Assembly (NCBI GenBank): GCA_947593925.1
Contig: CANQDU010000001.1
Coordinates: 141,188 to 205,187, forward strand
DNA from: an uncultured Clostridia bacterium
GTDB taxonomy: Bacteria; Bacillota; Clostridia; Oscillospirales; JAAYOS01
Direction of reading: 5' to 3'
DNA length: 64,000 nucleotides
Below, one piece after another: positions 1,157 to 58,349 of this stretch. The notes under the pieces were generated by a model that was not told where the DNA came from, ran no database searches, and saw only the letters and a program-made list of their open reading frames with translations. Position 1 is the first letter of the stretch. Every line of letters begins with the position of its first letter. The translations under genes and the position numbers were made by a program.

Positions 1157-1417
1157 TCGCTGCAAATCGCGGGCGCGGATTTCATCCGCGCCCTTACCAA
1201 TTTGCAGCGAGAGTTCACTTGGAATTGCACAGGTGCAATTCCAAGTGAAGCTGTCGGATAGGGCGAAGCCCTACCGACAGCGGACGCCGTTCTTCGTTCC
1301 TCGCGGGCTCTGCCCGCTCGAAACGCGAACGGCGATAGGAGTTTTTTCCGACGTACACGCCGTCGGAAAAAACATTCAACTCATTTCGCCGCTAAAGCGG
1401 CGAAACTCTGCGAGGCT
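1157..1417 (+). repeat. Mosaic hairpin composite R1 (modules A-B-C-D-Eshort), starting 4 nt after the fhs stop codon
   Basis: It contains module A 1157-1210, B 1214-1249, C 1251-1280, D 1285-1334, a hairpin at 1342-1372, and the E tail hairpin plus AAACTCTGCGAGGCT at 1383-1417. Each module recurs elsewhere in the window. Confidence 0.8.
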
Positions 1418-1424
1418 GAAATAA

Positions 1425-1452
1425 CGGACGGTGCGATTTGTCGCACCGTCCG
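1425..1452. terminator. Stem-loop between convergent genes (likely bidirectional terminator)
   Basis: A 12-bp perfect stem (cggacggtgcga/tcgcaccgtccg) with loop tttg lies between the fhs end and the end of the minus-strand lipoprotein gene. Confidence 0.55.
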
Positions 1453-1488
1453 CTATTTGTTATGGCGCTTGCGGAGCGTCAGAGTGCG

Positions 1489-2586
1489 TTACTCGGGTGT
1501 CTCCGCAAAGTTCAGATACAGGTAGAGAGTGTAGGTCTCGCCCGAGCCGTCCTCGTTCTCGGCAAAGGTCATCGAGAGGCGGTAGTTCCCACCACTGTCC
1601 CAGTTTTGGAGACCTATGGAGCTTATCGGAATAAGCCGAGGCGCGGGCTCGCCGTTTGATTCGGCGATACGCGTCCATTGCAGATACTGACCGGTTGGCG
1701 GAAAATCGCTGGTAATGCCGTCCTCGACCGTCCGGTACGCGCCGTTTTCCTCCCGTTCGAGCTTCATCGTGTCGGCCTGCAAATATCGGGTATCCCCGTC
1801 CGCATAGAGCAGCAGGTCAAGAGCGGCAAGGGAGCCGTTGTCTCCGCTGCGGTCAGTAAGAGTGTACGCCGCGACGCCTATCGGGTCGTCCCCGTACTGC
1901 GGTATGTCGAACTCGAAGGTTATCTCCTCCTCCGCCTCGCCGTTGGAGCCTCCGAACGCCGTTACATCCTCGCCGTTTAACGGCTCGAAGGGGATGGTGT
2001 CCTCGGTCCACAGCGGCACATACTCCCGCGCTACGACGCGGGCGCGGTAGTGCCCCGGAAGATAGTCATCAAGTTCTACTGCCAGCACCTGCTCGTTCCA
2101 CTCCGTCTCGTATGGATGCACGAATGAGCCGTAAACTAGCGGCGGAGTGTCAAACGCATATCCGATAAGCGTCCTAGTCCTCGGAGAAGCGTTGGAAACG
2201 CTGCCGCAGGCGGCCCAGCTGTCGCCGTCCTGCCGCTCAACGGTGCCGACTATTACGGAACCGCTGTCTCCCCGGACAAGCTCTCCGTCCTCCCAGAGGT
2301 TGTCGCCGAGCGAGTAATATTTGCCGTCGCCGGTCCGTATCTCCAGTTCGACGCTTATTCCGGGAGAGAGATTCAGGTATTTGCCGCTGAGGCCGGTTAC
2401 CGTCACCTCGAACTGTCCCTCGCTCCCCGAGGTGAACGTCTCGGGCACGGTGAACGTGAGGAGGTCCGGCGCGTCCGGCACTCCGCTCTCATCGCCCGGC
2501 GAACAAGATGAGAACATGAGCCCGACGGCAACCGAAAGAGCCAACAGCGCCGAGAAACATCTTTTTGCCGTGTTATTTGCTTTCAT
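1489..2586 (-). CDS. Predicted secreted lipoprotein of unknown function (paralog of 33429..34415)
   Basis: An internal Met at 2586 starts MKANNTAKRCFSALLALSVAVGLMFSSC, which reads as a signal peptide with a lipobox-like FSSC. The C-terminus (YRLSMTFAENEDGSGETYTLYLYLNF) resembles that of ORF 33429..34415. Confidence 0.65.
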   Translation of the reverse strand: MKANNTAKRCFSALLALSVAVGLMFSSCSPGDESGVPDAPDLLTFTVPETFTSGSEGQFEVTVTGLSGKYLNLSPGISVELEIRTGDGKYYSLGDNLWEDGELVRGDSGSVIVGTVERQDGDSWAACGSVSNASPRTRTLIGYAFDTPPLVYGSFVHPYETEWNEQVLAVELDDYLPGHYRARVVAREYVPLWTEDTIPFEPLNGEDVTAFGGSNGEAEEEITFEFDIPQYGDDPIGVAAYTLTDRSGDNGSLAALDLLLYADGDTRYLQADTMKLEREENGAYRTVEDGITSDFPPTGQYLQWTRIAESNGEPAPRLIPISSIGLQNWDSGGNYRLSMTFAENEDGSGETYTLYLYLNFAETPE

Positions 2587-2683
2587 TTTTACTGCCTCCT
2601 TTTTCCGGCTTTCGCCGTTTTCACCCGTATATGTCCGCACACCGCAAAATGAGGACAGCTTTTTCAAAAAATTTTTGGTAGAC

Positions 2684-2724
2684 AAAAAACAGTCTTTTCG
2701 GCTAACGCCGAAAAGACTGTTTTT
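2684..2724. terminator. Bidirectional rho-independent terminator
   Basis: A 13-bp stem (cagtcttttcggc/gccgaaaagactg) is flanked by an A-run and a T-run, downstream of the NUDIX gene. Confidence 0.6.
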
Positions 2725-2774
2725 CACATATCCCGTATATACCGGCGGAGCTTCCCGCCCGCGCCGACTGCCGC

Positions 2775-3221
2775 TCACAGCAGCGTCGGAGTCCACTTGT
2801 CTCCGTCGCGCTCGTAGATGAACTCGCTCACGCCGTCGTCCTCGAACGCGCGGAGCTGTACGTCGAGCTCCGGCACCTGCTCCATCGAGGCTATCTCGTC
2901 CTTCGTCGCCCAGAACATCCTGCCCTCCGAGGAGGAGCGCAGTTCGCCCGAAAACTCGCTTGTCTCAAAGTAGACCACTATGTAGCGGGCGTCCTCCTTC
3001 GTCTGAAACTGCTTTATCGCGCGGAGGTGGACGCTTCCTATCGTGAGACCCGTCTCCTCGTACACCTCGCGCCGCGCGGCGCGGACAAAGCTCTCCTCCC
3101 GCTCGACGTGTCCGCCGGGGAGGCTCACTCCGTGCCAGCCCGGATCGACCCGGTCCTGAAAGAGAATTTTGTCCCCGTCGCGCACGAGGACGAGCACCGT
3201 AAATATTGCGCTTTCCGGCAT
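2775..3221 (-). CDS. NUDIX hydrolase
   Basis: The Nudix box GGHVEREESFVRAARREVYEETGL is present. Confidence 0.85.
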   Translation of the reverse strand: MPESAIFTVLVLVRDGDKILFQDRVDPGWHGVSLPGGHVEREESFVRAARREVYEETGLTIGSVHLRAIKQFQTKEDARYIVVYFETSEFSGELRSSSEGRMFWATKDEIASMEQVPELDVQLRAFEDDGVSEFIYERDGDKWTPTLL

Positions 3222-3224
3222 GGT

Positions 3225-3980: not shown

Positions 3981-4050
3981 GATGTCCCTCCAAACAAAAA
4001 CGAAAAGCGGACGACGCGCGTCATCCGCTTGAAGCGTGTATATCCGGCCG

Positions 4051-4839: not shown

Positions 4840-4985
4840 CTCTATCCTCCCGAACCTGTCTCAAAAGGCGAATCTTCCCGCCTACTTTGATTATTGTATC
4901 AAATTTTACTTCCGAGGTCAAGCATTATCGGGAAATTGCGAAAAAACGCGAATTTCCGTTCCCGTGAAGCTTCACATCGCGGGTC

Positions 4986-6306: not shown

Positions 6307-6375
6307 TTCAGCATCCTCCCAACTTTTTCTTAGACGCGGCGGCGCGGAAAAAGTTCCGCGCGCCGGAAGATTTTC

Positions 6376-10869: not shown

Positions 10870-10942
10870 CATCAAAATCGCCCTTACGGGCTTTCGCAGC
10901 AAATCGCGCTCGCTACGCTGCCCAACCGGCGCGAAGCGCCGC

Positions 10943-11080
10943 CCGCGCCTGTTCGCGCGGTTAAAGTTGATTGCCGCAGGCAAACAACTTTGCGCAGGGG
11001 CAATTCATTTGCCCCGAGCATTTTAATCGGTAGGGTTCCCACGCGGTCGATGACCGCGTGGGACAAGCGAGCGGAGCGGC
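10943..11080 (-). repeat. Four-hairpin module F, copy 1 (part of composite R2, 10870..11121)
   Basis: It is homologous to 25887..26025 and 57975..58112, with hairpins at 10943-10960, 10964-10990, ~10997-11015 and 11037-11063. Confidence 0.8.
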
Positions 11081-11121
11081 AAAACGCCGCCATTCCCTGC
11101 CGCAGAACGTCTTTCAGAGAA

Positions 11122-11418
11122 TCATAAAAACCAGATTATCGCCAGTATCAGCTCCGCGAGCGTCAGCGCCCACACCGACGCCATGAGGTACCCCTTGCGT
11201 ATCTTGTGGTGCGCGGCGTAGAAGCCGATGAGCACCCCGGCGCCGCCGAGCGTCGCGGCAAAGAACACGAACCTCCGCTCGGGCACGCGGCGCTCGTGCC
11301 GTATCGCCGCGCGCTTGTCAAGGAGCGTCACCGTGAGCGCCACGATGTTCCATATCACGACGGCGACGGCGAACGCCGCGGCCGCCGGAACGCTTGTCGA
11401 AAGAAAGCTCTCCGGCAT
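11122..11418 (-). CDS. DUF1294-like small membrane protein
   Basis: The 98-aa protein has TM helices, and the motif LDKRAAIRHERRVPE resembles the DUF1294 family. Confidence 0.65.
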   Translation of the reverse strand: MPESFLSTSVPAAAAFAVAVVIWNIVALTVTLLDKRAAIRHERRVPERRFVFFAATLGGAGVLIGFYAAHHKIRKGYLMASVWALTLAELILAIIWFL

Positions 11419-13313: not shown

Positions 13314-14462
13314 ATGAAGAAAACTGCGACCCTGCTCGTTTTGGCCCTGCTCGCGGGTCTGCTCCCGCTCTCGGGCGCGAGCGCGGAGGTGCCCGCCGCG
13401 CCGACGGTCTCCGCCGCGGCGGCGTGTCTGATGGAACGGGACACCGGGCGCGTTCTCTACGAGCAGAACGCGCACGAGGCGATGCCTCCCGCGTCGGTGA
13501 CAAAGGTGATGAGCCTCCTCCTGATATGCGAGGCGCTGAACGACGGCCGCCTCACTCTTGACGGCACGGTGACCTGCTCGGAGCACGCAGCGTCGATGGG
13601 CGGCAGCCAGATCTACCTCGAGCCGGGCGAGGAGATGTCGGTCGAGGACATGCTGAAGTCGGTCGTGATGGGTTCCGCGAACGACGCCGTCGTCGCGCTC
13701 GCGGAGGCCGTCGCGGGCAGCGAGGATAGCTTCGTCGCGATGATGAACGCCCGCTCGAAGGAGCTCGGCATGAACGACTCGACTTGGAAGAACGCCTGCG
13801 GCCTCGACGTCGAGGGGCACGTCACGAGCGCCTACGACATAGCGGTCATGAGCCGCGCGCTGCTTCTCGAGTATCCCGAAATCAAGAAGTACACGACGAC
13901 ATGGATGGACAGCGTGCGCGGCGGCGAGTTTCAGCTTGCCAACACCAACAAGCTCGTCCGAAGCTACTCCGGCATAACCGGCCTCAAGACCGGCTACACC
14001 TCCACCGCCGGCCACTGCCTCTCCGCGACGGCGGAGCGGGACGGCATGGAGCTGATCTGCGCCGTTCTGAAGGGGCCGAGCTCGTCGGAACGGTTCGAGG
14101 CGGCGCGTCAGCTCCTTGACTACGGGTTTGCGAACTACGCCGTCGCCGACCTCACCGACGGCGCTGGCGCGATAGCGCCGGTGCCGGTCGAGATGGGCCG
14201 CGCGGACACGGTCGCCGCCGCGCCGGAGGGCGGCGGCAGGGTGCTCGTCGAGCGCGGCGAGCTCAGCTCGGTGACGCACGAGGTCTCCGTCGTCGAGTCC
14301 ATCCCCGCGCCGGTGTCGGTCGGGGACGCGCTCGGCGAGGTGATAGTCCGCGCCGGCGACCGCGAGCTCGCGCGGATACCGATAGTCGCGACCGAGTCCG
14401 TGGCGCGGCTCACCTTCGGGGACGTGTATACTGATCTGCTGAGAAAGCTGTTCTTTGAATAA
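13314..14462 (+). CDS. D-alanyl-D-alanine carboxypeptidase (serine-type, PBP5/S11 family)
   Basis: A signal peptide (MKKTATLLVLALLAG) and the SVTK (SxxK), SAN(D) and KTG motifs are present. Confidence 0.85.
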   Translation: MKKTATLLVLALLAGLLPLSGASAEVPAAPTVSAAAACLMERDTGRVLYEQNAHEAMPPASVTKVMSLLLICEALNDGRLTLDGTVTCSEHAASMGGSQIYLEPGEEMSVEDMLKSVVMGSANDAVVALAEAVAGSEDSFVAMMNARSKELGMNDSTWKNACGLDVEGHVTSAYDIAVMSRALLLEYPEIKKYTTTWMDSVRGGEFQLANTNKLVRSYSGITGLKTGYTSTAGHCLSATAERDGMELICAVLKGPSSSERFEAARQLLDYGFANYAVADLTDGAGAIAPVPVEMGRADTVAAAPEGGGRVLVERGELSSVTHEVSVVESIPAPVSVGDALGEVIVRAGDRELARIPIVATESVARLTFGDVYTDLLRKLFFE

Positions 14463-14469: not shown

Positions 14470-14514
14470 CGCGGGGAATAAGGAGCGGGCAAAGCCCGCT
14501 CCTTATTCCCCGCG
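14470..14514 (+). repeat. Stop-proximal long hairpin (first module of composite R3), 8 nt after the dacB-like stop
   Basis: The sequence is cgcggggaataaggagcgggc-aaa-gcccgctccttattccccgcg. It is homologous to 38739..38787, with a compensatory mid-stem. Confidence 0.75.
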
Positions 14515-14517
14515 AGA

Positions 14518-14600
14518 CCGTCGGACAGGGCGAAGCCCTGCCGACGGCCAGCGCCGTTCTTCGCTCCTCGCGGCTTTGCCGCTTCGAAGCGCGAACGGCG
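14518..14600 (+). repeat. Modules C and D of composite R3
   Basis: C (14518-14547, ccgtcggacagggcgaagccctgccgacgg) and D (14552-14600) parallel 1251-1280 and 1285-1334. Confidence 0.75.
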
Positions 14601-14778
14601 AGAGGTGTAAATTTCGCCGTTCGGTTCGTACAATGTTGGGACGTCGGCGCGAAGCGCCGAGGTCAGATGCGCCCGGTAGAAAGTTCCGGTGCGTAGCAAG
14701 TCGAAGGGCGCATTCACGCCGCCGCCGAAAATAATTTGAACTTATTTCGCCGCTAACGCGGCGAAACTCTGCGAGGCT
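14601..14778 (+). repeat. Module E, long form, copy 2
   Basis: It runs from gagaggtgtaaatttcgcc to atttcgccgctaacgcggcgaaactctgcgaggct and is homologous to the reverse complement of 25677..25853. Confidence 0.8.
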
Positions 14779-14843
14779 TTTGAAAAGCCCGAGGGAGCCG
14801 CTAAACGCGGCTCCCTCGGGTTTGCTTTATTTTGTGCGAATGT

Positions 14844-15515
14844 TTACTTCGCGCCGTACTCGGCGAGGTAGGCCTCCATCTTCGCGCGGGTGGCGTCGTC
14901 GATGTAGACCTTTCCGTCCACCTCGCGGTTATGCAGGCTCTCTATCACGTCGTACACCGTCGCTATCGGGCAGACCTTCAGGCCGAACTCGTCCTCGAGC
15001 TCGTCGAGAGCGGCGCGGACGCCCTGTCCGCGTTCGCGGCGGTCGATAGAGACTATCAGCGCCGCGAGCTTCACGTCCGCCGCCGATTTCAGTATCTCCG
15101 CGCTCTCGCGGACGGCGGTGCCGGCGGTGACGACGTCCTCCACTATCACTATGCGGTCGCCGTCCTTCGGCTTGTATCCGACAAGGCTGCCGCCCTCGCC
15201 GTGGTCCTTGGCCTCCTTGCGGTTGAAGAAGTACGGCTTATCGACGCCGTAGAGCCGCCACAGCGACGCGGCGGCGGCCGAGGCGAGCGGTATCCCCTTG
15301 TACGCGGGGCCGAACAGCGCGTCGAAGTCGGTCCCGAAGTCCTCCATTATCGTGCGGGCGTAGAGGTCGCCGAGCGCGGCGAGCTCCGCGCCGGTGCGGA
15401 AGTTGCCGGTGTTGACGAAGTACGGCGTCTTCCGTCCGCTCTTTGTGACGAAGTCGCCGAAGGTGAGCACGCCGGAGCGCACCATCAGTTCTATAAGCTC
15501 GCTTTTTCTGCTCAT
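14844..15515 (-). CDS. pyrE: Orotate phosphoribosyltransferase
   Basis: FGDFVTKSGRKTPYFVN and VIVEDVVTAGTA (PRPP-binding loop) are present. The start is at MSRKSELIE (15515). Confidence 0.9.
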   Translation of the reverse strand: MSRKSELIELMVRSGVLTFGDFVTKSGRKTPYFVNTGNFRTGAELAALGDLYARTIMEDFGTDFDALFGPAYKGIPLASAAAASLWRLYGVDKPYFFNRKEAKDHGEGGSLVGYKPKDGDRIVIVEDVVTAGTAVRESAEILKSAADVKLAALIVSIDRRERGQGVRAALDELEDEFGLKVCPIATVYDVIESLHNREVDGKVYIDDATRAKMEAYLAEYGAK

Positions 15516-15603
15516 GTCTGTCCTCCGAAAAGAATTCTCCGGACTAGGATACCACATTCCGGCGCATGATGCAAGAGAGAAAGTTTCAAACAGTCTACCG
15601 ACC

Positions 15604-15695
15604 GTTTGGGAATTGCGCCTGCGCAGTTCCAAGTGAACTTTTCGCTGCAAATTGGTAAGGGCGCGGATAAAATCCGCGCCCGCGATTTGCAGCGA
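15604..15695 (-). repeat. Composite R4: modules A (15642-15695) and B (15604-15637), inverted, starting 6 nt after the stop of the minus-strand gene 15702..16112
   Basis: The reverse complement of 15642-15695 equals 1157-1210 except for one loop base. Confidence 0.85.
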
Positions 15696-15701
15696 AATTA
15701 T

Positions 15702-16112
15702 TTAGAAATACTTGCTTATCCCCTCGCTGACATTGTCGAGCGGGGCGCTTATCATGACGGTGAACTGCACGCCGTTCTCGGTGCGGAACTTCTCGAGCCA
15801 GTCGAGGAACTCCGCGCAGTGCTCGGGGTCGCTGTCTCCCGCGACCTTATAGAGGCTGTCGATAAAGACGTGGGTGGTGTCGTAATTTCCGGCATACAGC
15901 CCGGAGATGAAGCCCTTGAGCGCCTCGTAGCTGTTCACGGGATAGTGAGTTATATCAACAAGACGAGCCTTATAGTTTACATCGTATGTCAGGCGCTTGC
16001 CGCGCTCAATGCAGATAACCGTGCCCTTTTCGGTCAGAAGAGCCTCGTTGACGATGCTTACGACCTTCTGAGTCTTGCCCGAGCCCTTCGGCCCCATTAT
16101 GACTTTGATCAA
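15702..16112 (-). CDS. Small P-loop NTPase, unknown function
   Basis: It has Walker A GPKGSGKT and a Walker-B-like HVFIDS in a 136-aa protein. Confidence 0.6.
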   Translation of the reverse strand: MIKVIMGPKGSGKTQKVVSIVNEALLTEKGTVICIERGKRLTYDVNYKARLVDITHYPVNSYEALKGFISGLYAGNYDTTHVFIDSLYKVAGDSDPEHCAEFLDWLEKFRTENGVQFTVMISAPLDNVSEGISKYF

Positions 16113-25593: not shown

Positions 25594-25627
25594 CGCAAAA
25601 GGACAGGCGCAAAAGCGCCTGCCCTTT
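25594..25627 (-). terminator. Rho-independent terminator closing composite R5 (oad operon 3' end)
   Basis: The minus strand reads aaagggcaggcgc-tttt-gcgcctgtccttt followed by T residues. Confidence 0.55.
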
Positions 25628-25676
25628 CTAGCATGAAATCTCGCTGGTCTCGCCCGTTCACGCAATTTTTCGCGCC

Positions 25677-25853
25677 AGCCTCGCAGAGTTTCGCTGCTTC
25701 AGCGGCAAAATAAAGTTCGATCTGTTTTTTTCCGACGACAATGCGCCCGCCAACATATACCGTGCTTAACATTCTACCGGGCGCATCAGACCTCGGCGCT
25801 TCGCGCCGAGGTCCCAACATTGTACGAACCATAGGGCGAAATTTACACCTCTC
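25677..25853 (-). repeat. Module E, long form, copy 3 (inverted)
   Basis: Its reverse complement aligns with 14601..14778, including gagaggtgtaaat, gggacCtcggcgcgaagcgccgaggtc, gatgcgccc...gggcgcatt and the tail aaactctgcgaggct. Confidence 0.8.
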
Positions 25854-25886
25854 GCGTAGCGCGCGTCGAAGGCGGCGAAGCCGTTT

Positions 25887-26025
25887 CCGCGCCGGTTCGC
25901 GCGGTTAAAGTTGCTTGCCTATGGCAAGCAACTTTGCGCAGGCGGAATTCACTTCCGCCGAGCATTTCAATCAAAAGGGCTCCCACGCGGTCACTGACCG
26001 CGTGGGAATTGCGAAGCGGAGCGCC
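25887..26025 (-). repeat. Four-hairpin module F, copy 2
   Basis: It is homologous to 10943..11080 and 57975..58112. Stems are at 25887-25904, 25908-25934, ~25941-25959 and 25981-26007. Confidence 0.8.
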
Positions 26026-26026
26026 C

Positions 26027-26110
26027 GCCGCCGGCAGGACTTTGTCCTGTCCGGCGGCTTCGCGGAAAATTGAAGGGGGCAGACAAAGTCTGCCCCCTCG
26101 ATTTTCCGCG
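26027..26110 (-). repeat. Module C copy (26027-26058) plus stop-proximal nested hairpin (26061-26110), starting 6 nt after the oadB stop
   Basis: The nested hairpin is cgcggaaaat..agggggcagac-aaa-gtctgccccct..attttccgcg. The inner stem recurs at 58322-58349. Confidence 0.75.
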
Positions 26111-26116
26111 AAAGTT

Positions 26117-27301
26117 TTACGCGCCCAGCGCCTGCATCGCGGCGAGCAGGAAGCCCGCGGCGACGGCGGAGCCGATAACGCCCGCGACGTTCGGACCCAT
26201 GGCGTGCATGAGCAGGAAGTTCGAGGGATTTGCCTTCTGACCCTCGACCTGCGACACGCGCGCCGCCATCGGGACGGCGGACACGCCGGCCGAGCCGATA
26301 AGCGGGTTGATCTTGCCGTGAGTGAGCCAGCACATGAGCTTGCCGAGCAGCAGGCCGCCGACGGTCGAGAAGCAGAACGCCAGCAGTCCGAGCGCTATGA
26401 TGCAGAGCGTGCGGACCTGGAGGAAGTTCGAGCCGACAGTCGTTGCGCCGACCGAGATGCTGAGGAATATCGTGACGATGTTCATCAGCGCGTTCTGCGC
26501 GGTGTCGCTGAGACGGTCAGTGACGCCGCACTCCTTGAGCAGGTTGCCGAGCATCAGCATACCGAGCAGCGGAGCCACGGACGGCAGAAGCAGCACGGTG
26601 AAGATGGTCACGACTATCGGGAAAATTATCTTCTCGCGCTTGGTGACGGTGCGGAGCTGCTCCATCTTTATCTCGCGCTCCTTCTTCGTCGTCAGCAGCC
26701 GCATGAGCGGAGGCTGAATGAGCGGTATCAGCGCCATGTAGCTGTACGCCGCTATCGCTATCGGGCCGAGAAGGTCGGGCGCGAGCTTGTTTGTGAGCCA
26801 GATGGCGGTCGGGCCGTCCGCGCCGCCGATGATGCCTATCGAGGCCGCCTCGTTGCCGAAGAAGCCGAGCAGCAGGGCGAGCATGAACGCGCAGTAGACG
26901 CCGAGCTGTGCCGCCGCGCCGAGGAAGAGCGACTTCGGGTTGGAGAGCAGCGGGCCGAAGTCGGTCATCGCGCCGACGCCGAGGAATATCAGCGACGGAT
27001 AGATGCCGGTCTTGACGCCGATGTAGAGTATGTCGAGCAGGCCGCCCTCATGCAGCACCTTGGAGTAGCTGATGTTCTCCGGCGCACCCGCCCACAGCTC
27101 CGGGTGATACACACCCGCACCGGGGAGGTTCGTGAGCAGCGTTCCGAACGCTATGCCGACAAGCAGCAGCGGCTCGAATTTCTTGACGATGCCCAGGTAG
27201 AGAAGAACGCACGCGACGATTATCATCACGAGGTTCTGCCAGTTTCCGCCCGCCTGGTAGAAACCGGATGTCTCCCAGACTCTCTGAATTACTTCTAACA
27301 T
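26117..27301 (-). CDS. oadB: Sodium ion-translocating decarboxylase, beta subunit
   Basis: The polytopic protein shows strong OadB/GcdB/MmdB family similarity (GIAFGTLLTNLPG, IIGGADGPT, SAGVSAVPMAARV). Confidence 0.9.
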   Translation of the reverse strand: MLEVIQRVWETSGFYQAGGNWQNLVMIIVACVLLYLGIVKKFEPLLLVGIAFGTLLTNLPGAGVYHPELWAGAPENISYSKVLHEGGLLDILYIGVKTGIYPSLIFLGVGAMTDFGPLLSNPKSLFLGAAAQLGVYCAFMLALLLGFFGNEAASIGIIGGADGPTAIWLTNKLAPDLLGPIAIAAYSYMALIPLIQPPLMRLLTTKKEREIKMEQLRTVTKREKIIFPIVVTIFTVLLLPSVAPLLGMLMLGNLLKECGVTDRLSDTAQNALMNIVTIFLSISVGATTVGSNFLQVRTLCIIALGLLAFCFSTVGGLLLGKLMCWLTHGKINPLIGSAGVSAVPMAARVSQVEGQKANPSNFLLMHAMGPNVAGVIGSAVAAGFLLAAMQALGA

Positions 27302-27330: not shown

Positions 27331-27726
27331 TTAGCCGAGAACAACAAGCGGAGCGCCGGTATCGACGGTGCTTCCCTGGGCGGCGACTATCTGGGTAACG
27401 GTACCGTCATGCGGAGCGACGATCTCGTTTTCCATCTTCATGGCCTCGAGTATGACGAGGATCTGACCGGCCTTGACGGCCTCGCCCTGCTTGACCTTTA
27501 TCGAAAGGACGGTGCCGGGCATCGGAGCGGTGACCTGCTCGCCGGGGCCTACCGGAGCGGCGGGGGCGGGAGCCGGAGCGGCCGCAGGAGCGGGCGCGGC
27601 GGCAGGGGCGGGCGCGGCGGGGGCCGCGACTACGGGAGCGGCGTACTGACCGACTACGACGGCCTCGCCCTTCTCCACTTCTACCTCGTAGGTGGTGCCG
27701 TTAAGAGTGACCTTGTACTTTTTCAT
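27331..27726 (-). CDS. Biotin carboxyl carrier subunit (biotinyl domain)
   Basis: A Pro/Ala linker precedes the biotinylation motif EAMKMENEI. Confidence 0.85.
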
Positions 27727-27749: not shown

Positions 27750-28247
27750 TTAGACACGCTTTATCGAATTGAAGAAGAGCTCGTCGGGCTCGCAGCCCAT
27801 CTCATCCGCGACGATCGCCATTATCATGGCGGCGCTCTTTTCGTCAACGTCCGTAAGCTCCGTACCGTCAACGATCCTTCCGCCTTCCGGCACGCGCTTG
27901 ATGGAGTTTATGCGGAGCTCCTCCGGCTCGCAGCCCATTTCGTCCGCCACGGTCGCGATAAGCATCGCGGCGGTCTTTGCGGGCATACGGAGCGCGGGAG
28001 CCGGCTTCTTCGCGGCGGGAGCCGCGGGTGCGGCGGCGGCCGGTGCGGGGGCCGGAGCCGCCGGAGCGGGCGCGGCCTTGGGAGCCGACGCCTTCTCGCT
28101 TATCGCGCCCATTATCTTGATGACTATCATCAGCGCGAACAGCGCGGCAAAGACTATCGCTATACCGAGCAGGGCGTAGCCGAGGCCGGTGCCGAGGCCG
28201 AGCTCTATGCCGGTCGTGCCGGCTTCATGAAAGAATTTACCCAGCAT
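27750..28247 (-). CDS. OadG-family small subunit with duplicated C-terminal motif
   Basis: An N-terminal TM helix (ALLGIAIVFAALFALMIVI) and an Ala/Pro linker are followed by two copies of A(M)xIAxVADEMGCEPxELxxNSIKRV. Confidence 0.6.
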   Translation of the reverse strand: MLGKFFHEAGTTGIELGLGTGLGYALLGIAIVFAALFALMIVIKIMGAISEKASAPKAAPAPAAPAPAPAAAAPAAPAAKKPAPALRMPAKTAAMLIATVADEMGCEPEELRINSIKRVPEGGRIVDGTELTDVDEKSAAMIMAIVADEMGCEPDELFFNSIKRV

Positions 28248-37668: not shown

Positions 37669-38736
37669 ATGACAAGATCAGTCGAAGCCACCGGAAAAAC
37701 TATCGAAGACGCGATAGAAAGCGCATATTCGATGCTCGGGGTCTCGCGCGACGAGGCGGATGTCACGATAGAGGTCGTCGCGCGGCCGAAGAGCGGCTTT
37801 CTCGGCATAGGCGCGTCGCCCGCAAAGGTGCGCGCCACGTATGATGACGGCGTCGAGGAAGCTCCCGCCGTACCGTCGCCCGCGCCGGAGCTCCGCACCG
37901 AGCCCGCAAAGTCGGAGCCGAAGCCTCAGCCGCAGCGCCGTCCGCGCGAGCCGAAGCCCGAGGCAAAGCAGGAGCGCGAGCCGAAACCGGAGCGCGAGCC
38001 GAAGCCGCACCGCGAACCGAAGCCAGAGCAGCCCCGCCGCGAGCAGCGTCCCGCGCAGGAGCATCAGGCGTCCGCTCCCGCGCAGGAGCACGCCGAGCAC
38101 GAGGAGAAGATACCGAACGTCTCCATGGAGGAGCTCGAGGCTCGACGCGCGCGCGCCGAGGAGTTCCTGAAGGGACTGCTCGAGCGTATGGGCGCGGAGG
38201 CAAACGTCACCTCCGAGATACGCGAGGAGAACAAGAGCATCGCGATAAATCTCGACGGAGAGAACGTCGGCATGCTGATAGGCCGCCGCGGAGAGACTCT
38301 CGGCGCCATACAGCACATCACCGGCTACATGGCAAACAAGGGCTCGAGCGAGCGCGTCCGCGTCGTCGTCGATGCGGAGGGCTACCGCTCCAAGCGCGAG
38401 GACGCGCTTCGCGGGCTTGCGCACCGCACCGCGATGAAGGCCGTCCGTATGCGCCGCAACATCACTCTCGAGCCGATGAACGCCTACGAGCGTCACGTCA
38501 TACACACCGCCCTCCAGGAGTGGCGGGACGTCAGCACCTTCTCGACCGGCGCGGAACCGCGCCGCGCGGTCGTCGTCGCCTACACCCCCGGCGGCGGCAA
38601 GGGCGAAAAGCGCGAGAGGAACGACCGCCGTGACGACCGCGACCGCCGCGATCGCCGCGACCGTCCGCGCCGCGACTCTGCGCCCGCGCAGCCGCGTCCG
38701 AAGAGCGAACCCCTGCCCGAGCAGGTCTGGGAGTAA
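37669..38736 (+). CDS. jag: Jag/KhpB-type RNA-binding protein (Jag_N + KH + R3H) with low-complexity insert
   Basis: The N-terminus GKTIEDAIESA..LGV, GRRGETLGAIQHI (KH) and EPMNAYERHVIHTAL (R3H) are present. An EPKP-rich repeat is inserted after Jag_N. Confidence 0.8.
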   Translation: MTRSVEATGKTIEDAIESAYSMLGVSRDEADVTIEVVARPKSGFLGIGASPAKVRATYDDGVEEAPAVPSPAPELRTEPAKSEPKPQPQRRPREPKPEAKQEREPKPEREPKPHREPKPEQPRREQRPAQEHQASAPAQEHAEHEEKIPNVSMEELEARRARAEEFLKGLLERMGAEANVTSEIREENKSIAINLDGENVGMLIGRRGETLGAIQHITGYMANKGSSERVRVVVDAEGYRSKREDALRGLAHRTAMKAVRMRRNITLEPMNAYERHVIHTALQEWRDVSTFSTGAEPRRAVVVAYTPGGGKGEKRERNDRRDDRDRRDRRDRPRRDSAPAQPRPKSEPLPEQVWE

Positions 38737-38738: not shown

Positions 38739-38787
38739 CTCACGGGGAACAGTTCGCGGGTAAAGCCCGCGAACTGTTCCCCGTGAG
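38739..38787 (+). repeat. Stop-proximal long hairpin (first module of composite R6), 3 nt after the jag stop
   Basis: The sequence is ctcacggggaacagttcgcggg-taaa-gcccgcgaactgttccccgtgag. Confidence 0.75.
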
Positions 38788-39105
38788 GCCGCCGGACAGA
38801 GCGGAGCTCTGCCGGCGGCAACGCTACGCTACGCGCCGAGTTTTCCGCCTTCGGCGGAAAATCGACGCACGCTCCGCGAGAGGTGTAAATTTCGCCGTAC
38901 ACGCCGCCGAAATTTACGGATTTGAATTTATTTCGCGCCAAAGGTGCGAAACTCTGCGAGGCTTGATTGCACTGTCCGCGCCGGTTCGCGCGGTGCGGCT
39001 TTGCCACTCGAAGCGCACTGCATACTGCACTATGTCGGGGAGTTGGCGCGCAGTTCACGGGCTTATCGAACAGCCGAAGCGGAGCCCCGTGCGGGCTTCG
39101 CTTTT
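38788..39105 (+). repeat. Remainder of composite R6 (module C 38788-38819, D-like, E short 38878-38963, partial F-type hairpin, terminal hairpin)
   Basis: The shared strings gccgccggacag..ctgccggcggc, gagaggtgtaaatttcgcc, atttcgcgccaaaggtgcgaaactctgcgaggct and ccgcgccggttcgcgcgg are all present. Confidence 0.7.
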
Positions 39106-47338: not shown

Positions 47339-47414
47339 GCTGGTATAGCTCAGCCGGTAGAGCAGCTGATTCGTAATCAGCAGGTCGTGTGTTCGAGTCA
47401 CATTACCAGCTCCA
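47339..47414 (+). tRNA. tRNA-Thr (anticodon CGU), CCA encoded
   Basis: It was folded by hand. The elements are acceptor GCTGGTA/TACCAGC, D arm GCTC/GAGC, anticodon arm GCTGA-TTCGTAA-TCAGC, T arm GTGTG-TTCGAGT-CACAT, discriminator T and CCA. Confidence 0.9.
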
Positions 47415-52520: not shown

Positions 52521-52585
52521 CCCCAACGCTTCGCAAACATTTGACCGCTATAATGTATTCAGAAAACCGAAAGGAGCAAAAAATC

Positions 52586-52969: not shown

Positions 52970-52970
52970 C

Positions 52971-53016: not shown

Positions 53017-53039
53017 CATCCTCGGAAGAAGGCCTTCCG

Positions 53040-53945: not shown

Positions 53946-54017
53946 ACATTCCTCCTGCTTTCTCGGGTCTCTGCGGCGGAGCGCGTCGGCTGCCGGCGGC
54001 GTCCGCCCGTGCGGACG

Positions 54018-54680: not shown

Positions 54681-54884
54681 GCAAAGCACCTCCGAGTATA
54701 TTGTTGAAGGTCGGTTCGTTCGTGACAGCGCGGCCGGCTCCGAGTTTATCGGTTGCATCGCTCTATTTTGCGTCGCATATATGCCTCGAAGCCCGGCAAA
54801 CGCCGCTGCGGCGCGCATACATATTCCACCAATATACCGAATTATATAACGAGCGCAAGGATGTGTCAAGACCGCGCCATATCA

Positions 54885-55765
54885 GCAGGCGGAGCCCGCA
54901 ACCCTCCAGCGGGGAAGCCCCCGCGAGCATTCGCGGGGCGAGCCCCGCGTCCCTAGGTAGAGCGGAGCTCTACCGACACATTGCGGGGGCACTGCCCCCG
55001 CACCCCCGGCGGGGCTGTGCCGCCCCGCACCCCTGCATTACTTTTTGCTCGCGCAAAAAGTAATCAAAAAGCGCGCTTAAGGGAGAGGGCTTTGCCCTCT
55101 CCCTTAAAAATCCCTCTCCCAATACAGACACACAACCGCAACCCACATAACAGGACAAACTCCGTATCAAACAAATCCGTCATCCGACCGGGTGAGTTTC
55201 TGGGGATACAATATCCGACTTTCCCACTATATCGACGACATCGAACAGTTCCTGCGTAGTAGAAATAAAAGTCCGGTCCTACGCTCACACTATAAGCGTA
55301 ATGCAGATGCTATCCCGAGAAAACGAAACTTTCGGTTCTAGTGGAAAGTATGAGCGTAGACGCTTGTACTAAGCTGCGGACGGGCGTCCCGCGTAGCAGA
55401 GATTTTCCGGTTAAGGAAAGAGGGGTACAAAGGGGAGAAAACCGTTGGTTTTCTCCCCTTTGTGTGCTTTTTGGTTACTTTTTGCACAAGCAAAAAGTAA
55501 CGCAGGGCGCGGGGGCGCCGCCCCCGCAAAGTGCCGGTGAGGCTCTGCCTCACTCAGGGACGCGGGGCCCGCCCCGCGAATGCTCGCGGGGCTTCCCCGC
55601 TGGATGGGTGTGGGCTTTGCCCACTTAGGGACGCTGGGCCGCCCCCGCGAATGCTCGCGGGGCTTCCCCGCTCGATGGGAGTGGGCTTTGCCCGCTTTGG
55701 TGCGGGGCTTTCCCGCTATTCGGGCGCGGGTGCTTGCCCCGCAAATCTGCGGGCTCCGCCCGCAG
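54885..55765. repeat. ~880-bp non-coding element: long imperfect inverted arms built of GC-rich hairpin modules around a lower-GC core
   Basis: The left arm (54885-~55125) is the reverse complement of parts of the right arm (~55414-55765). For example, 54906-54954 matches 55556-55603 and 55627-55675 in inverted orientation. The ends are gcaggcggagcccgc and gcgggctccgcccgc. Confidence 0.75.
55556..55697 (+). repeat. Tandem duplication of a 71-nt module inside the right arm
   Basis: 55556-55626 and 55627-55697 are about 90 percent identical by eye. Confidence 0.75.
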
Positions 55766-55768
55766 ATA

Positions 55769-55797
55769 TTGACAATCCTTCGCCGATGCTCTACAAT
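55769..55797 (+). promoter_or_regulatory. Candidate sigma-A promoter of the MATE gene
   Basis: TTGACA (55769-74) and TACAAT (55792-97) are separated by 17 nt. Confidence 0.55.
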
Positions 55798-55864
55798 AGT
55801 GAGGCGTAAGCGTTTTCCCGCGCGGCGGGACGGACGAAATATCGGCGCGAAAAGGGACATTGTG

Positions 55865-57280
55865 ATGGACAGAACGATAAATTCGGCGTTTCCGTGGAGA
55901 GACTTTTTGAAGCGGCTCGCCGTGATAGCTATACCGGTGGCGCTCCAGAACCTGCTGACGACTACCGCGAGCATGGTGGACACGATGATGGTCGCCCCGC
56001 TCGGCGAGACGACGGTCGGCGCGCTCGGACTGTGCGCGCAGTTCTCCTCGCTGATGTTCTCCTGCTACTGGGGCTTTGTCGGCGGAGGTAGCCTTTTCTT
56101 CTCTCAGTACTGGGGCTCGAAGGAGGACGACGGCATCGAGCGCTCCTACGGCATGACGTGGGTGTGCATGATGACGGTCGCCGTCGTTTTCGGATGCCTT
56201 GCGATGTTTGCGCCGGGCGCGGTCATGCGCCTCTATACCGACAAGACGGCGATACAGCAGATAGGCGTGCAGTACCTTCAGATAGTCGGCGCGGCGTACA
56301 TAATGCAGGTGTTCTCGATGGCGATGAGCAGTCTGCTCCGCTCCACCGAGCGGGTGCGGATACCGCTCGTCGCATCTATCGCGTCGGTCGCGACGAATAT
56401 CCTCCTCAACTGGGTGTTCATCTACGGAAAGCTCGGGCTTCCCGCCATGGGTATACGCGGCGCCGCGCTCGCGACTACATGCGCCGCCGCCGTGAACGTG
56501 CTTGCAATATATCTTATGGCGCGCGGCGTGAGGTACCCGTACCTCTTTCACATTCGCGGACACTTCCGCTGGACGCGCGCGCACCTGAAAAACTACCTCA
56601 TAAAGTGCTTCCCGATAATCTGCAACGAGCTCCTCATCGGCGTCGGGAACATGCTGATAAACATAACGCTGGGACGTCAGCCCGAGCCGGTGATAGCCGC
56701 GATAGCGGTGTTCCGAACGCTCGAGGGACTGATAATCGGCTTCTTTGCGGGATTTTCGAGCGCCGCTTCGATACTCGTCGGCACCTGCGTCGGCGCTGGC
56801 GAGCTGAAGACGGCGTATGAGCGCGCAAAGCGGCTCGTGTACCTGTGCAGCGGGATAATATTCTGCGCCGGGCTCGTGCTCCTGCTTATCCACAAGCCGA
56901 TACTCACCGGGATGGGACTTTCCGGAGAGTCGTACACGGCGGGCTTCCGCTTCCTTCTCATATACGTCGTGGTGTCGCTCATAAGGATGGGAAACTGGAT
57001 ACAGAACGACACCTACCGCGCCTCCGGCGACTCGGTCTACGGCACGACGCTCGAGATAGTATTCATGTATGTGCTCGTGCTCCCCTGCGTATTGCTTTCG
57101 GGGTTCGTGTTCAAGCTCCCGTACTGGCTCATATTCATCTTCTGTTACATAGACGAACCGATACGCTACCTGCTCATGCAGATACACCTCTACTCCGGCA
57201 AGTGGATAAAGCCGGTAACAGACGTCGGCCGCGCCGCGCTCCCGGCCTTCCGCGAGCAGATGCGGAGAAAAAAGGCATGA
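55865..57280 (+). CDS. MATE family efflux transporter
   Basis: The N-terminus reads LAVIAIPVALQNLLTTTASMVDTMMV, and 12 TM helices are present. The start is at the ATG at 55865. Confidence 0.85.
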   Translation: MDRTINSAFPWRDFLKRLAVIAIPVALQNLLTTTASMVDTMMVAPLGETTVGALGLCAQFSSLMFSCYWGFVGGGSLFFSQYWGSKEDDGIERSYGMTWVCMMTVAVVFGCLAMFAPGAVMRLYTDKTAIQQIGVQYLQIVGAAYIMQVFSMAMSSLLRSTERVRIPLVASIASVATNILLNWVFIYGKLGLPAMGIRGAALATTCAAAVNVLAIYLMARGVRYPYLFHIRGHFRWTRAHLKNYLIKCFPIICNELLIGVGNMLINITLGRQPEPVIAAIAVFRTLEGLIIGFFAGFSSAASILVGTCVGAGELKTAYERAKRLVYLCSGIIFCAGLVLLLIHKPILTGMGLSGESYTAGFRFLLIYVVVSLIRMGNWIQNDTYRASGDSVYGTTLEIVFMYVLVLPCVLLSGFVFKLPYWLIFIFCYIDEPIRYLLMQIHLYSGKWIKPVTDVGRAALPAFREQMRRKKA

Positions 57281-57379
57281 CGCGCGCAAAAGTTTTTCTT
57301 ACATTCCGGCCCTGAAATATGTTATAATCGGTATAAAGACGGATGAAAGAAGCTTTGCGCTGCGGAAAGGTGAGTTTTG

Positions 57380-57883
57380 ATGTATCTGGTAGGAGAAACG
57401 GTGGTCTACGGGCTCATGGGAGTATGCGTAGTCGAGGCCGTAGGCGAGCTTGATATGCAGGGCGCGGACAAGGGCAGGAGCTACTACACCCTCGCGCCTC
57501 TACACCGGGACGGGAAGATATTTGCCCCGGTGGATACGTCGGTCGCCATGCGCCGCGCCATGACGCGGGAACAGGCGATGGAGCTCATTCGCAGCATGCC
57601 CGCCATAGAGCGCGACACCTACGAAAGCAACAATCCGCGCATGCTCGACGAGCATTACAGGACGTATCTGAAAAGCGGGGACTGCGTGGATCTCGTGCGG
57701 GTCGTGCGGACGGTCTACGCCAAGAGCCGCCTCGCCGCCGAGAAGGGACGCCGCCTCGGTCAGGTGGACGAACGGAGCATGAAGCGCGCGGAGGAGATGC
57801 TGTATGACGAGCTCGCCTTTGCCCTCGACATGCGCCCGGACGAGGTGAAGGACTTCATCTGCGTGACGCTGGGAGACAAATAA
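57380..57883 (+). CDS. CarD/CdnL-family transcriptional regulator-like protein
   Basis: A CarD_TRCF-like N-terminus (GETVVYGLMGVCVVEAV...YYTL) is followed by a helical C-terminus. Confidence 0.75.
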   Translation: MYLVGETVVYGLMGVCVVEAVGELDMQGADKGRSYYTLAPLHRDGKIFAPVDTSVAMRRAMTREQAMELIRSMPAIERDTYESNNPRMLDEHYRTYLKSGDCVDLVRVVRTVYAKSRLAAEKGRRLGQVDERSMKRAEEMLYDELAFALDMRPDEVKDFICVTLGDK

Positions 57884-57887
57884 AACT

Positions 57888-57941
57888 TCGCTGCAAATCG
57901 CGGGCGCGGATTTCATCCGCGCCCTTACCAATTTGCAGCGA
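57888..57941 (+). repeat. Module A, copy 3, starting 4 nt after the carD-like stop
   Basis: It is identical to 1157-1210 over 54 nt. Confidence 0.9.
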
Positions 57942-57942
57942 A

Positions 57943-57974
57943 GCCGCCGGACAAGGCGTAGCCTTGCCGGCGGC
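57943..57974 (+). repeat. Module C copy
   Basis: The sequence is gccgccggacaaggcgtagccttgccggcggc. Confidence 0.7.
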
Positions 57975-58112
57975 AGCGCTCCGCTACGCATTCCCACGCG
58001 GTCGGCGACCGCGTGGGAGCCCTTCCGATTAAAATGCTCGCCCCGAATGAATCGGGGCTCCGCGAAGTTGCTTGCCTGTGGCAAGCAACTTCAACCGCGC
58101 GAACCGGCGCGG
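57975..58112 (+). repeat. Four-hairpin module F, copy 3
   Basis: It is colinear with the reverse complements of 10943..11080 and 25887..26025. Confidence 0.8.
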
Positions 58113-58149
58113 AGTGCGGCTCCGCCGTCTTCGACGCACGCTCCGCACA

Positions 58150-58302
58150 GTACACAGTCGGGACGTCGGCGCGAAGCGCCGACGTCTGATGCGCCCGGAA
58201 GAAGGTCGGATGAGGTATTGGTTCGAGGGCGCATTGTACACGCCGTCGGAAAAAATGAATTTAACTCTATTTCGCGCCCTTGGCGCGAAACTCTGCGAGG
58301 CT
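58150..58302 (+). repeat. Module E, copy 5
   Basis: gggacgtcggcgcgaagcgccgacgtc, gatgcgccc..gggcgcatt and atttcgcgcccttggcgcgaaactctgcgaggct are present. Confidence 0.8.
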
Positions 58303-58321
58303 TAGAAGCGGTTATAAAATT

Positions 58322-58349
58322 AAGGGGGCAGACTTTCGTCTGCCCCCTT
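58322..58349. terminator. Hairpin closing composite R8 (between the convergent carD-like gene and proC)
   Basis: The sequence is aagggggcagac-tttc-gtctgccccctt. Confidence 0.5.

Follow-up and report, generated by a model that had tools for sequence, protein, structure and literature searches.

REP, BIME and REPIN sequences of Enterobacteria and Pseudomonas are single palindromes of 20-40 nt that are paired in inverted orientation, make no target duplication and are linked to Y1 RAYTs. IS200/IS605 elements have no inverted-repeat ends, leave no duplication, and insert with a replication-strand bias. Correia elements and NIMEs of Neisseria and RIMEs of Rhizobium are multi-copy intergenic repeats, mosaic or inverted-repeat in build, made of hairpins and co-transcribed with their neighbours. 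Correia elements make a fixed TA duplication, and we know of no case in which any of these three duplicates terminators. In the part of the account by Croucher et al. (2011, PMC3049150) used here, the pneumococcal repeats BOX, RUP, and SPRITE are small, non-coding and highly folded, and they are thought to be MITEs. BOX is built of modules, with boxB in variable number between boxA and boxC. According to the same part, these Firmicute repeats are present in >100 copies per genome, are enriched between convergent genes, are about 61-63% co-oriented with the coding bias, and are clustered and inserted into one another (PMC3049150). IS1272, of the IS1272/IS1182 family, is a DDE transposon of Firmicutes that inserts into inverted-repeat stem-loops; these targets vary in sequence and often lie immediately 3' of genes. 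It replaces the target stem-loop, leaving no duplication (PMC5678879).

We analysed a 64,000-nt stretch of DNA (the window) in which the first-pass annotation had described seven intergenic regions assembled from shared hairpin modules (Table 1). A repeat search and reading of the sequence confirmed these modules in all seven regions, in the order and orientation relative to the upstream gene that had been described, and every composite starts 2-8 nt past a stop codon. The regions total 2,347 nt (3.7% of the window), which is less than the ~3 kb that had been claimed, and self-BLAST of the seven regions found no extra module copies in the rest of the window. The identities of the upstream genes fhs, DUF1294, dacB-like, oadB, and jag were backed by Pfam, and CarD-family homologues were found for the carD-like gene; for the P-loop gene upstream of R4, the Pfam search gave no match. 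R1 (z = -14.5, seven hairpins) and R8 (z = -12.6) fold far better than shuffled sequence. R2 and R4 are partial composites (a D-with-G fragment and A+B only, respectively), and the G block of R2 is 81-82% identical to those of R5 and R8. A hairpin of the R5 G block (26008-25980) scored as terminator-like.

Table 1. Positions of the hairpin modules and composites in the window.
Feature	Position (strand)	Gene context	Modules or copies
Module A	1156-1210 (+), 15642-15696 (-), 57887-57941 (+)		3 copies, 97-98% identity
E tail GCGAAACTCTGCGAGGCT	1400-1417, 14761-14778, 25677-25694 (-), 38946-38963, 58285-58302		5 exact copies
Module F	14621-14714, 25740-25830 (-), 58155-58235		3 copies
G block, roughly 120 nt	10943-11063 (-), 25887-26007 (-), 57992-58112		3 copies
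R1	1156..1452 (+)	3' of fhs (stop 1150-1152); convergent genes	A 1156-1210, B 1213-1249, C 1250-1281, D 1285-1334, h 1339-1373, E 1383-1417, terminator hairpin 1425-1452 (predicted terminator-like site)
R2	10870..11121 (-)	3' of DUF1294 gene (stop 11122-11124)	D arms with G block 10943-11063; without C, h, E
R3	14470..14823 (+)	3' of dacB-like gene (stop 14460-14462)	A-like palindrome 14470-14514, C 14517-14548, D 14552-14600, h 5' arm 14604-14620, F in h loop 14621-14714, h 3' arm 14715-14738, E 14744-14778, terminator 14785-14823
R4	15609..15696 (-)	3' of P-loop gene (stop 15702-15704); within apparent two-gene operon	A 15642-15696, B 15609-15638, nothing else
R5	25597..26113 (-)	3' of oadB (stop 26117-26119)	A-like 26059-26113, C 26027-26058, D with G 25887-26007, h with F 25740-25830, E 25677-25711, 50-nt extra piece, terminator 25597-25627
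R6	38739..39105 (+)	3' of jag (stop 38734-38736)	A-like 38739-38787, C 38788-38819, D 38822-38878, h 38882-38919, E 38930-38963, 67-nt extra piece 38964-39030, F-like fragment, then terminator 39076-39105
R8	57887..58349 (+)	3' of CarD-like gene (stop 57881-57883)	A 57887-57941, C 57943-57974, D with G 57992-58112, F 58155-58235, h 3' arm 58236-58257, E 58269-58302, terminator 58322-58349

The modules had been described as one shared repertoire. Their sharing stands, and they are not independent: C-D-h-E is one non-coding unit about 200 nt long, built as an asymmetric series of four hairpins, and the apical loops of h and D hold F and G, respectively, as secondary hairpin blocks. The fixed module order is explained by this single unit with its two loop insertions. 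The 5' arm of hairpin C also serves as a terminal inverted repeat with the pattern (G)ACTGTCRAAAAA, D is a long stem with a variable apex, h has the conserved loop ACGYACAYGYCGC, and E is followed by the invariant tail AAACTCTGCGAGGCT. Canonical copies end at the 3' side in TTTTTYGACAnnCTG, which is complementary to the 5' end. These terminal inverted repeats are imperfect (about 12-16 nt), and they pair with each other when a canonical copy (L072) is folded to minimum energy. Both ends are retained in short C+E derivatives, while the window copies are without the 3' inverted repeat. A and B are additional palindromes on the stop-codon side in the lineage of the window.

A search with the 18-nt E tail matched >113 stretches, nearly all of them from Oscillospiraceae. 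With a 204-nt family profile, of which positions 104-190 match R1 at 1333-1417, 830 kb of loci from about 57 Oscillospiraceae genomes yielded 127 copies; since copies were ascertained by the exact 18-mer, this set is biased toward well-preserved ones. One 861-kb Vescimonas fastidiosa replicon is matched at 39 places, and the 590 kb examined contain 24 full-length copies. The repeat makes up about 1-4% of the sequence examined and is found at gene ends in dozens of genera. When the window and canonical copies were searched against Rfam 15, no family matched them at gathering or E-value thresholds; tRNA and unrelated families alone reached threshold, and weak sub-threshold matches to the composites were at chance level. 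A literature search found no description of the repeat family either. The view that the family was an unrecognised one therefore holds, and all seven regions belong to one interspersed repeat family not described before, as whole, nested or fragmentary copies. We consider it likely (probability roughly 0.7) that this family is a non-autonomous, MITE-like mobile element that is spread across the Oscillospiraceae and accumulates at gene 3' ends.

Orientation can be judged at just four window sites (R2, R4, R5, and R6, between tandem genes), since the other three (R1, R3, and R8) sit between convergent genes. All four are co-oriented (one-sided p = 0.06), and thus the window alone cannot establish the orientation lock that the first-pass annotation had proposed and wished to see judged on copies genome-wide. 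Those copies refute it. In tandem contexts 44 copies are co-oriented and 25 are antisense, with MAG genes called by a crude, spot-checked GC3 caller and flanking genes Pfam-checked at six of the antisense sites. RefSeq annotation gave three Vescimonas antisense cases, two full-length (within the 25) and one partial, which is uncounted. The co-orientation bias of 64% is heterogeneous among genomes (permutation p = 0.012): JAFYPT (1:5 co-oriented to antisense) and URPU (0:3) are mainly antisense, and Vescimonas is 10:2. Gene 3' ends are preferred: 47 contexts are convergent and 11 are divergent (p = 2e-6). The spacing between the stop codon and the 5' end of the element is bimodal, either -4 to +7 nt or one hairpin away, and 7 of the 10 co-oriented Vescimonas copies begin 0-6 nt past the stop codon. 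Random insertion alone does not explain the overall bias, the Vescimonas ratio and the frequent abutment of stop codons.

These observations could point to a selected structured 3'-UTR RNA, transcribed in sense together with the upstream gene and acting as an mRNA stabiliser, a terminator insulator, or a protein or RNase platform, with the hairpins kept at the RNA level. The close spacing to stop codons in the window and in Vescimonas agrees with it, as do the shared orientation of all seven window composites and the 10:2 ratio in Vescimonas. Moreover, no terminator-like hairpin precedes them, and thus they are probably transcribed as 3' UTRs. Such transcription is a consequence of location; it is no evidence of a selected RNA function. 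Antisense copies stand against an RNA function, as sense orientation is not fixed. There is also no tie to gene function, and the neighbours are unrelated housekeeping genes.

The stems bear on the same question. In the alignment, 98.4% of stem cells are paired, and 228 cells carry double changes compared with 74±10 expected from shuffles. Such covariation, together with loops and tail conserved across genera, fits an RNA. However, the substitutions are not of RNA type: G·U pairs (9 of 1,629 cells) are no commoner than A·C mismatches (15). Taken with the verified antisense copies, this pattern of constraint is at the level of DNA and not of sense RNA. The 18-nt tail is identical across genera, and with the strong covariation this is conservation above that of typical MITEs; it would also fit a selected function of RNA or single-stranded DNA.

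Intact copies lie between duplications of local sequence. These measure 6-11 nt at ordinary sites (6, 9, 10, and 11 nt at non-hairpin sites) and 22-38 nt at terminators, where the whole terminator hairpin is duplicated. In 17 of 35 full-length MAG copies, the flanking match lies above the 99th percentile of a null with swapped partners, with the repeats directly adjoining the two ends of the element. In Vescimonas, a flanking duplication is present in 4 of 13 full-length copies, those whose 3' ends are best preserved. No duplication was detectable in about half of the full-length copies, which counts against a mobile element. Four of the 17 hairpin duplications match better inverted than direct; a simple staggered cut does not predict this, and loop flipping would be needed. 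Loop flipping was seen between the terminators of R5 and of its counterpart in L102.

Orthologous sites also differ between relatives, and those of R3 and R4 were compared in syntenic ones. At the R3 site, L132-L134 have a plain terminator and no element. The R4 site is empty in L132, where stop and start overlap, and holds a 58-nt spacer with a simple hairpin in L130. The site orthologous to R5 in L102 has a different composite (another A variant, B present, without G or F), the R6 ortholog in L032 is nearly identical but without the 67-nt piece, and the R8 ortholog in L122, where CarD is 95% identical, combines another A variant with a second h-E unit and lacks G. CarD loci of more distant relatives have no element. 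Thus, the element is gained, lost, and reshuffled between close relatives, and it inserts as DNA beside stop codons and at intrinsic-terminator hairpins, with duplication of the target. Genes that lack the element in relatives, or have a differently built one, also argue against a 3'-UTR RNA. In the class with duplicated terminators, a complete terminator lies ahead of the element, and thus sense read-through would be limited. In view of the antisense copies, the G·U and A·C counts, and the empty or rebuilt orthologous sites, the dedicated 3'-UTR function that had been suggested is not supported, and we regard it as quite unlikely. Because it arrives at gene ends and terminators, the family looks more like selfish repeat DNA than dedicated regulatory RNA.

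The alternative offered with it, a mobile origin, is borne out in its general form by the duplications, empty sites, turnover and copy number. Its specific versions, REP/RAYT and IS200/IS605 PATEs, are not. Relics of such a single-strand, hairpin-recognising HUH/Y1 system (RAYT-mobilised REP/BIME or IS200/IS605 PATEs, possibly a TnpB-type guide RNA scaffold) would share the several conserved hairpins with conserved loops, the extragenic position at gene ends and the mosaic build. Y1 systems, however, produce no locus-specific flanking duplications, and in Vescimonas the strands are mixed on both sides of the origin (dnaA; left 5+/4-, right 7+/4-). The asymmetric multi-hairpin unit of roughly 200 nt also differs from a 20-40-nt REP with a GTAG-type head, and no Rfam match to IS605-orfB or HEARO-type RNAs was found. 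A tblastn search with an IS200 TnpA probe gave nothing at E<0.5 in 1.07 Mb, which is weak evidence because the probe sequence was approximate and RAYTs are divergent. The duplications, the inverted-repeat ends and the mixed strands in Vescimonas speak against IS200/IS605 PATEs, and the asymmetric four-hairpin unit and the target duplications against REP/BIME-RAYT. We hold an HUH/Y1 origin to be very unlikely.

A search of 1.07 Mb of loci turned up neither an autonomous parent IS with matching ends nor a matching transposase, and the annotation of 590 kb of Vescimonas lists no IS transposase. Since the stems are perfectly Watson-Crick and the loops and tail are conserved, we infer an insertion enzyme that recognises the folded element in trans. 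Such an enzyme would attack both sides of an extruded hairpin, and a small fixed stagger across it would give a duplication of hairpin length. Copies between a stop codon and a terminator, as are all seven in the window, would then be carried passively in the 3' UTR, where their hairpins may incidentally influence mRNA decay or termination.

The missing DNA transposase partner, the duplication length varying from 6 to 38 nt, the strongly conserved fold and the invariant 3' tail might instead suggest SINE-like spread through an RNA intermediate, in which a reverse transcriptase recognises the fold and target-primed insertion leaves variable-length duplications. No reverse transcriptase was seen near any copy, and none is annotated in the 590 kb of Vescimonas. 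Moreover, the sense-strand G·U signature is absent, and the inverted-repeat ends and the duplication lengths that track hairpins fit structure-directed DNA cleavage better. We know of no bacterial precedent, and we hold this route to be highly improbable. It is unlikely, too, that the family represents a new mode of transposition (a folded-element enzyme with insertion at the hairpin base) or that its conserved core is a domesticated RNA or single-stranded DNA module with a host function, carried on a mobile backbone. Under a new mode, the enzyme would recognise the h loop, the E hairpin and the invariant tail, with whole intrinsic terminators being duplicated, and the lineage-specific orientation and stop-codon abutment would hint at a coupling with transcription or translation.

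The family has the generic features of MITEs: it is small (under about 500 bp), non-coding and multi-copy, with terminal inverted repeats and target-site duplications, the last being unusual in their variable length of 6-38 nt. The best reading is a mobile mosaic repeat of the MITE/BOX/BIME kind, with gene ends and terminators as its targets. Similar to REP/BIME/REPIN, the family consists of extragenic palindromes at gene 3' ends, is mosaic, has hundreds of copies and may have incidental effects on mRNA stability and termination. It shows neither REP-sized inverted pairs nor duplication-free insertion, nor a Y1 RAYT link (the last on the weak evidence of the approximate probe). Correia elements, NIMEs and RIMEs resemble it in the general traits named above, and their sequences and hosts differ from those of this family. 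All features listed above from the part of Croucher et al. (2011, PMC3049150) used here are shared with BOX/RUP/SPRITE, the co-orientation being 64% in our family. An informal comparison showed no visible sequence relationship to these repeats, and the host clade is another one. The Oscillospiraceae unit also differs in being conserved across many genera with strong compensatory covariation, and its intact copies duplicate whole terminators, which is not reported for BOX/RUP/SPRITE in that part of the account (PMC3049150). IS1272 provides a precedent for structure-directed targeting of terminator-like hairpins (PMC5678879), whereas the Oscillospiraceae family duplicates the hairpin on both sides and has no linked IS1182-type transposase or related ends.

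Whole-terminator duplication and a cross-genus core with compensatory changes are unusual among bacterial MITEs, and they point to a mechanism in which structure directs insertion. The non-coding DNA of the Oscillospiraceae, an abundant group of gut bacteria, has hardly been studied. The repeat is carried by strains in culture, namely Vescimonas fastidiosa MM35 and Papillibacter cinnamivorans DSM 12816. The repeat is a ready marker for strain typing, and predictions of terminators or 3' UTRs at the gene ends that bear it must allow for it. Many contigs with neighbouring genes stop within a few hundred bases, which matters for assembly. Spurious ORFs overlap it in annotations; in the window, a PRTase ORF seems to be over-extended into R4.

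The seven hairpin-rich intergenic composites of the window (62% G+C, metagenome-derived), R1 to R6 and R8, are built from one set of modules, and a repeat search of the window recovered these modules where the first-pass annotation had placed them. Hairpin A (55 nt) occurs in three copies with 97-98% identity, the 18-nt tail of hairpin E (GCGAAACTCTGCGAGGCT) in five exact copies, F in three copies (89% identity between the two full ones), and G, a block of ~120 nt, in three copies with 81-84% identity. No module copies were found by self-BLAST in the window outside the seven regions. On reading all seven regions we saw the same module order and the same orientation relative to the upstream gene, and every composite adjoins a stop codon, at a measured 2-8 nt rather than the proposed 3-8 nt. 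The upstream genes fhs (R1), DUF1294 (R2), dacB-like (R3), oadB (R5), and jag (R6) were confirmed by Pfam, homologues of the gene upstream of R8 are of the CarD family as proposed, and the P-loop gene upstream of R4 had no Pfam match. The composites sum to 2,347 nt (3.7% of the window) and not to roughly 3 kb; R2 and R4 are fragments. R1 and R8 fold into chains of near-perfect hairpins (z = -14.5 and -12.6, respectively).

A scan of species-representative genomes with the E tail gave matches in more than 113 stretches. Almost all of these belong to Oscillospiraceae or Clostridia MAGs, and Papillibacter cinnamivorans DSM 12816 is also among them; three matches were chance occurrences inside genes of unrelated phyla. 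When the surroundings of the tail were aligned, they formed one conserved unit of ~200 nt. Its 5' end, (G)ACTGTCRAAAAA, doubles as the 5' arm of hairpin C; D follows as a long stem with a variable apical hairpin, then GAGAAGT and hairpin h with the conserved loop ACGYACAYGYCGC, and last hairpin E, the invariant tail, and TTTTTYGACAnnCTG. The C, D, h, and E of the window are this unit. Comparison of R6, where h is intact, with R3, R5, and R8 places F within the h loop, and comparison of R6 and L122 (a relative's locus with a CarD protein 95% identical) with R5 and R8 places G at the D apex. Since F and G are nested in one unit, the conserved order belongs to a single element with additions inside it rather than to independent modules. 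The A and B palindromes occur in the lineage of the window. A 204-nt profile found 127 copies in 830 kb from ~57 genomes, a sample ascertained by an exact 18-mer, which favours well-preserved copies. Short derivatives retain only C and E, and the E tail is identical across genera. No relevant Rfam match was obtained for the window (gathering and permissive scans) or for 15 canonical loci (gathering scan), and the family was not described in any paper located by full-text search, in agreement with the earlier remark that the composites were not recognised as a described family.

The best-supported reading is that the family is a non-autonomous mobile mosaic repeat. Relatives with a P-loop protein 73% identical keep the gene order 423-aa gene, P-loop, phosphoribosyltransferase, dacB; in these relatives the P-loop stop overlaps the phosphoribosyltransferase start (TAATG), and nothing but a plain bidirectional terminator lies in the phosphoribosyltransferase-dacB gap. 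These relatives therefore lack R4 and R3. The R4 site of an 83% relative is a 58-nt spacer that contains a single simple hairpin, and more distant CarD loci lack the element. R6 differs very little from its ortholog L032, apart from a 67-nt indel after E. R5 and L102 have distinct A variants and also differ in B, G, and F, while R8 and L122 differ in the A variant, G, and an extra h-E unit. In a check for strain polymorphism, contigs sharing the DUF1294 protein were 100% identical to the window and hence uninformative, and contigs identical to the window came from ENA ERZ27059885 and two Logan runs. Judged by the 223 aa encoded in relatives, the phosphoribosyltransferase probably starts close to 15515, and ORF calls can be lengthened by repeats of this family.

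Among full-length MAG copies with sufficient flank, 17 of 35 had a direct repeat of local sequence adjoining both ends, each above the 99th percentile of a null that pairs flanks from different loci (MAG loci were 8-kb blocks). These repeats of 22-35 nt consist of the local terminator hairpin and its T-run. Flanking terminator duplications of 25-38 nt were also found at 4 of 13 Vescimonas copies, namely those with the best-preserved 3' ends. Non-hairpin sites had short repeats (AAGTAA, AGCTCCGCC, AGTATATRAT, AGGAGGYAACA). Four hairpin duplications match better inverted than direct. Terminator loops flip while stems are kept, as in the R5 terminator and L102, and inverted loops of duplicated or orthologous terminators also occur in the flanks of L091, L047, L031, and L070, which suggests that loop flipping at palindromes is frequent. 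The idea that the A-type hairpins are native terminators enclosed by element ends did not gain support: they lack a T-run, and they differ from the terminal hairpins.

From the variable duplication length we infer a mechanism in which an enzyme would make slightly staggered cuts on either side of an extruded hairpin. Such a stagger would give repeats of 6-11 nt at ordinary sites and hairpin-length repeats at terminators. ISfinder reportedly lists the direct repeats of IS1182 as very variable; this is background and was not used as evidence. A precedent for stem-loop targeting by a Firmicute transposase is IS1272 (PMC5678879), but IS1272 replaces its target hairpin whereas the family here duplicates it. 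The inverted-repeat ends, target duplications, and deletion derivatives of the family are MITE-like, and its modularity, nesting, and location are BOX- or BIME-like. For an autonomous parent we searched 1.07 Mb of loci for element ends split by an ORF and for solo ends beside long ORFs, and found only loop insertions and C-only or C+E derivatives. As a check on the suggested Y1 transposase, tblastn of an approximate IS200 TnpA query against 1.07 Mb gave no match below E = 0.5, a weak negative.

In Vescimonas fastidiosa MM35 (closed, annotated), a canonical copy matched 39 places on the 861-kb replicon pMM35_01. Within the 590 of 861 kb covered, full-length copies number 24, a density of roughly one every 25 kb. 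The annotation of this part lists no IS transposase, and its only recombinases are those of conjugative elements and a prophage. This replicon (NZ_AP023416.1; L117-L121, L126-L129, L135-L137) carries dnaA-dnaN-recF-gyrBA, ribosomal protein operons, rpoBC, and many tRNA synthetase genes, and thus it is chromosome-like and not a plasmid. In phage and plasmid collections, the only matches were replicons of Vescimonas and Pusillibacter and eight faecal 'Bacteriophage sp.' contigs without annotation, with no transposase under any match. The eight records, deposited as phage from human faeces (MT836333.1, MT838656.1, MT836293.1, and five others), match the canonical unit; they may be bacterial sequence that was mis-binned, or a vehicle by which the element passes from genus to genus. 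Many metagenomic contigs with close homologues of composite-adjacent genes are only 0.5-3 kb long (P0070-P0074, P0001-P0003), which fits assembly breakage at these multi-copy repeats.

The strict orientation lock proposed for the window did not hold across the family. Only four of the seven window sites lie between tandem genes and are informative. MAG loci, with genes called by a simple, crude GC3-based caller that was only spot-checked, gave 38 convergent, 31 tandem co-oriented, 23 tandem antisense, and 8 divergent sites, and flanking genes were Pfam-confirmed at six antisense sites. The full-length Vescimonas copies (RefSeq annotation) gave 10 co-oriented, 2 antisense, 9 convergent, and 3 divergent. 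Pooled tandem sites were 44 co-oriented versus 25 antisense (64%, p = 0.03), and orientation was heterogeneous among genomes (permutation p = 0.012; for example 10:2 in Vescimonas versus 1:5 in JAFYPT). Therefore the lock is a bias, close to the co-orientation of 61-63% reported for pneumococcal BOX, RUP, and SPRITE (PMC3049150). Copies strongly favour gene 3' ends (47 convergent versus 11 divergent, p = 2e-6). The distance from stop codon to the 5' end of co-oriented copies is bimodal, with 11 of 30 at -4 to +7 nt, and the 5' end often abuts the stop codon; in a second group, 18 of 30 at 34-101 nt, a terminator copy intervenes. A replication-strand bias, tested around dnaA in Vescimonas, was absent, and to either side of the origin the element occurs on both strands.

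The proposed interpretation as 3' UTR elements or mobile relics was partly supported, the observation behind it being confirmed. No terminator-like hairpin lies ahead of the window composites, and R1 and R3 end in good ones. The composites are therefore probably carried in 3' UTRs, and R4 is probably inside an operon transcript. The closing hairpin of R8 was called on the minus strand only. An effect on mRNA stability is possible.

In 68 distinct aligned h+E segments, RNAalifold predicted three helices. Paired cells made up 98.4% versus 84% in shuffles, double-change cells numbered 228 versus 74±10 (reached in 0 of 500 shuffles), and pairing fell to 35-61% of cells in slid controls. Therefore the hairpins are under selection. 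If a sense-strand RNA were the target of selection, G·U would be expected to be tolerated and A·C not. Among 1,629 cells in paired columns there were 9 G·U and 15 A·C, and this equal rarity fits constraint on a DNA palindrome or on either single strand.

Positions of further features in the window
Feature	Position	Strand	Description
Phosphoribosyltransferase, longest ORF	14844-15650	-	268 aa, TTG start, extends into R4
R5 terminator	25597-25627		loop TTTT, AAAA in L102
GC-rich tandem repeat	27551-27633		18-nt period, apparently within ORF 27331-27726
Repeated segment	27754-27981		90 nt, repeated 138 nt apart, 78% identity, within ORF 27750-28247
tRNA gene	47339-47411	+	sole Rfam gathering-level match in window
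Second repeat system	54884-55700		long inverted repeats, 80-85% complementarity
Core of second system	55110-55420		~300 nt, AT-richer
Right-arm tandem duplication	55536-55677		71 nt

The window also contains a second, unrelated repeat system with no Rfam match. Its arms are GC-rich hairpins (GGGGCTTCCCCGC..., GTTACTTTTTGC...GCAAAAAGTAAC) around the core. A further mobile element and a non-coding RNA locus are both possible readings, and this system may correspond to the 'R7' missing from the first-pass numbering. The GC-rich tandem repeat and the repeated 90-nt segment appear to be repeats within coding sequence, with no relation to the hairpin family.
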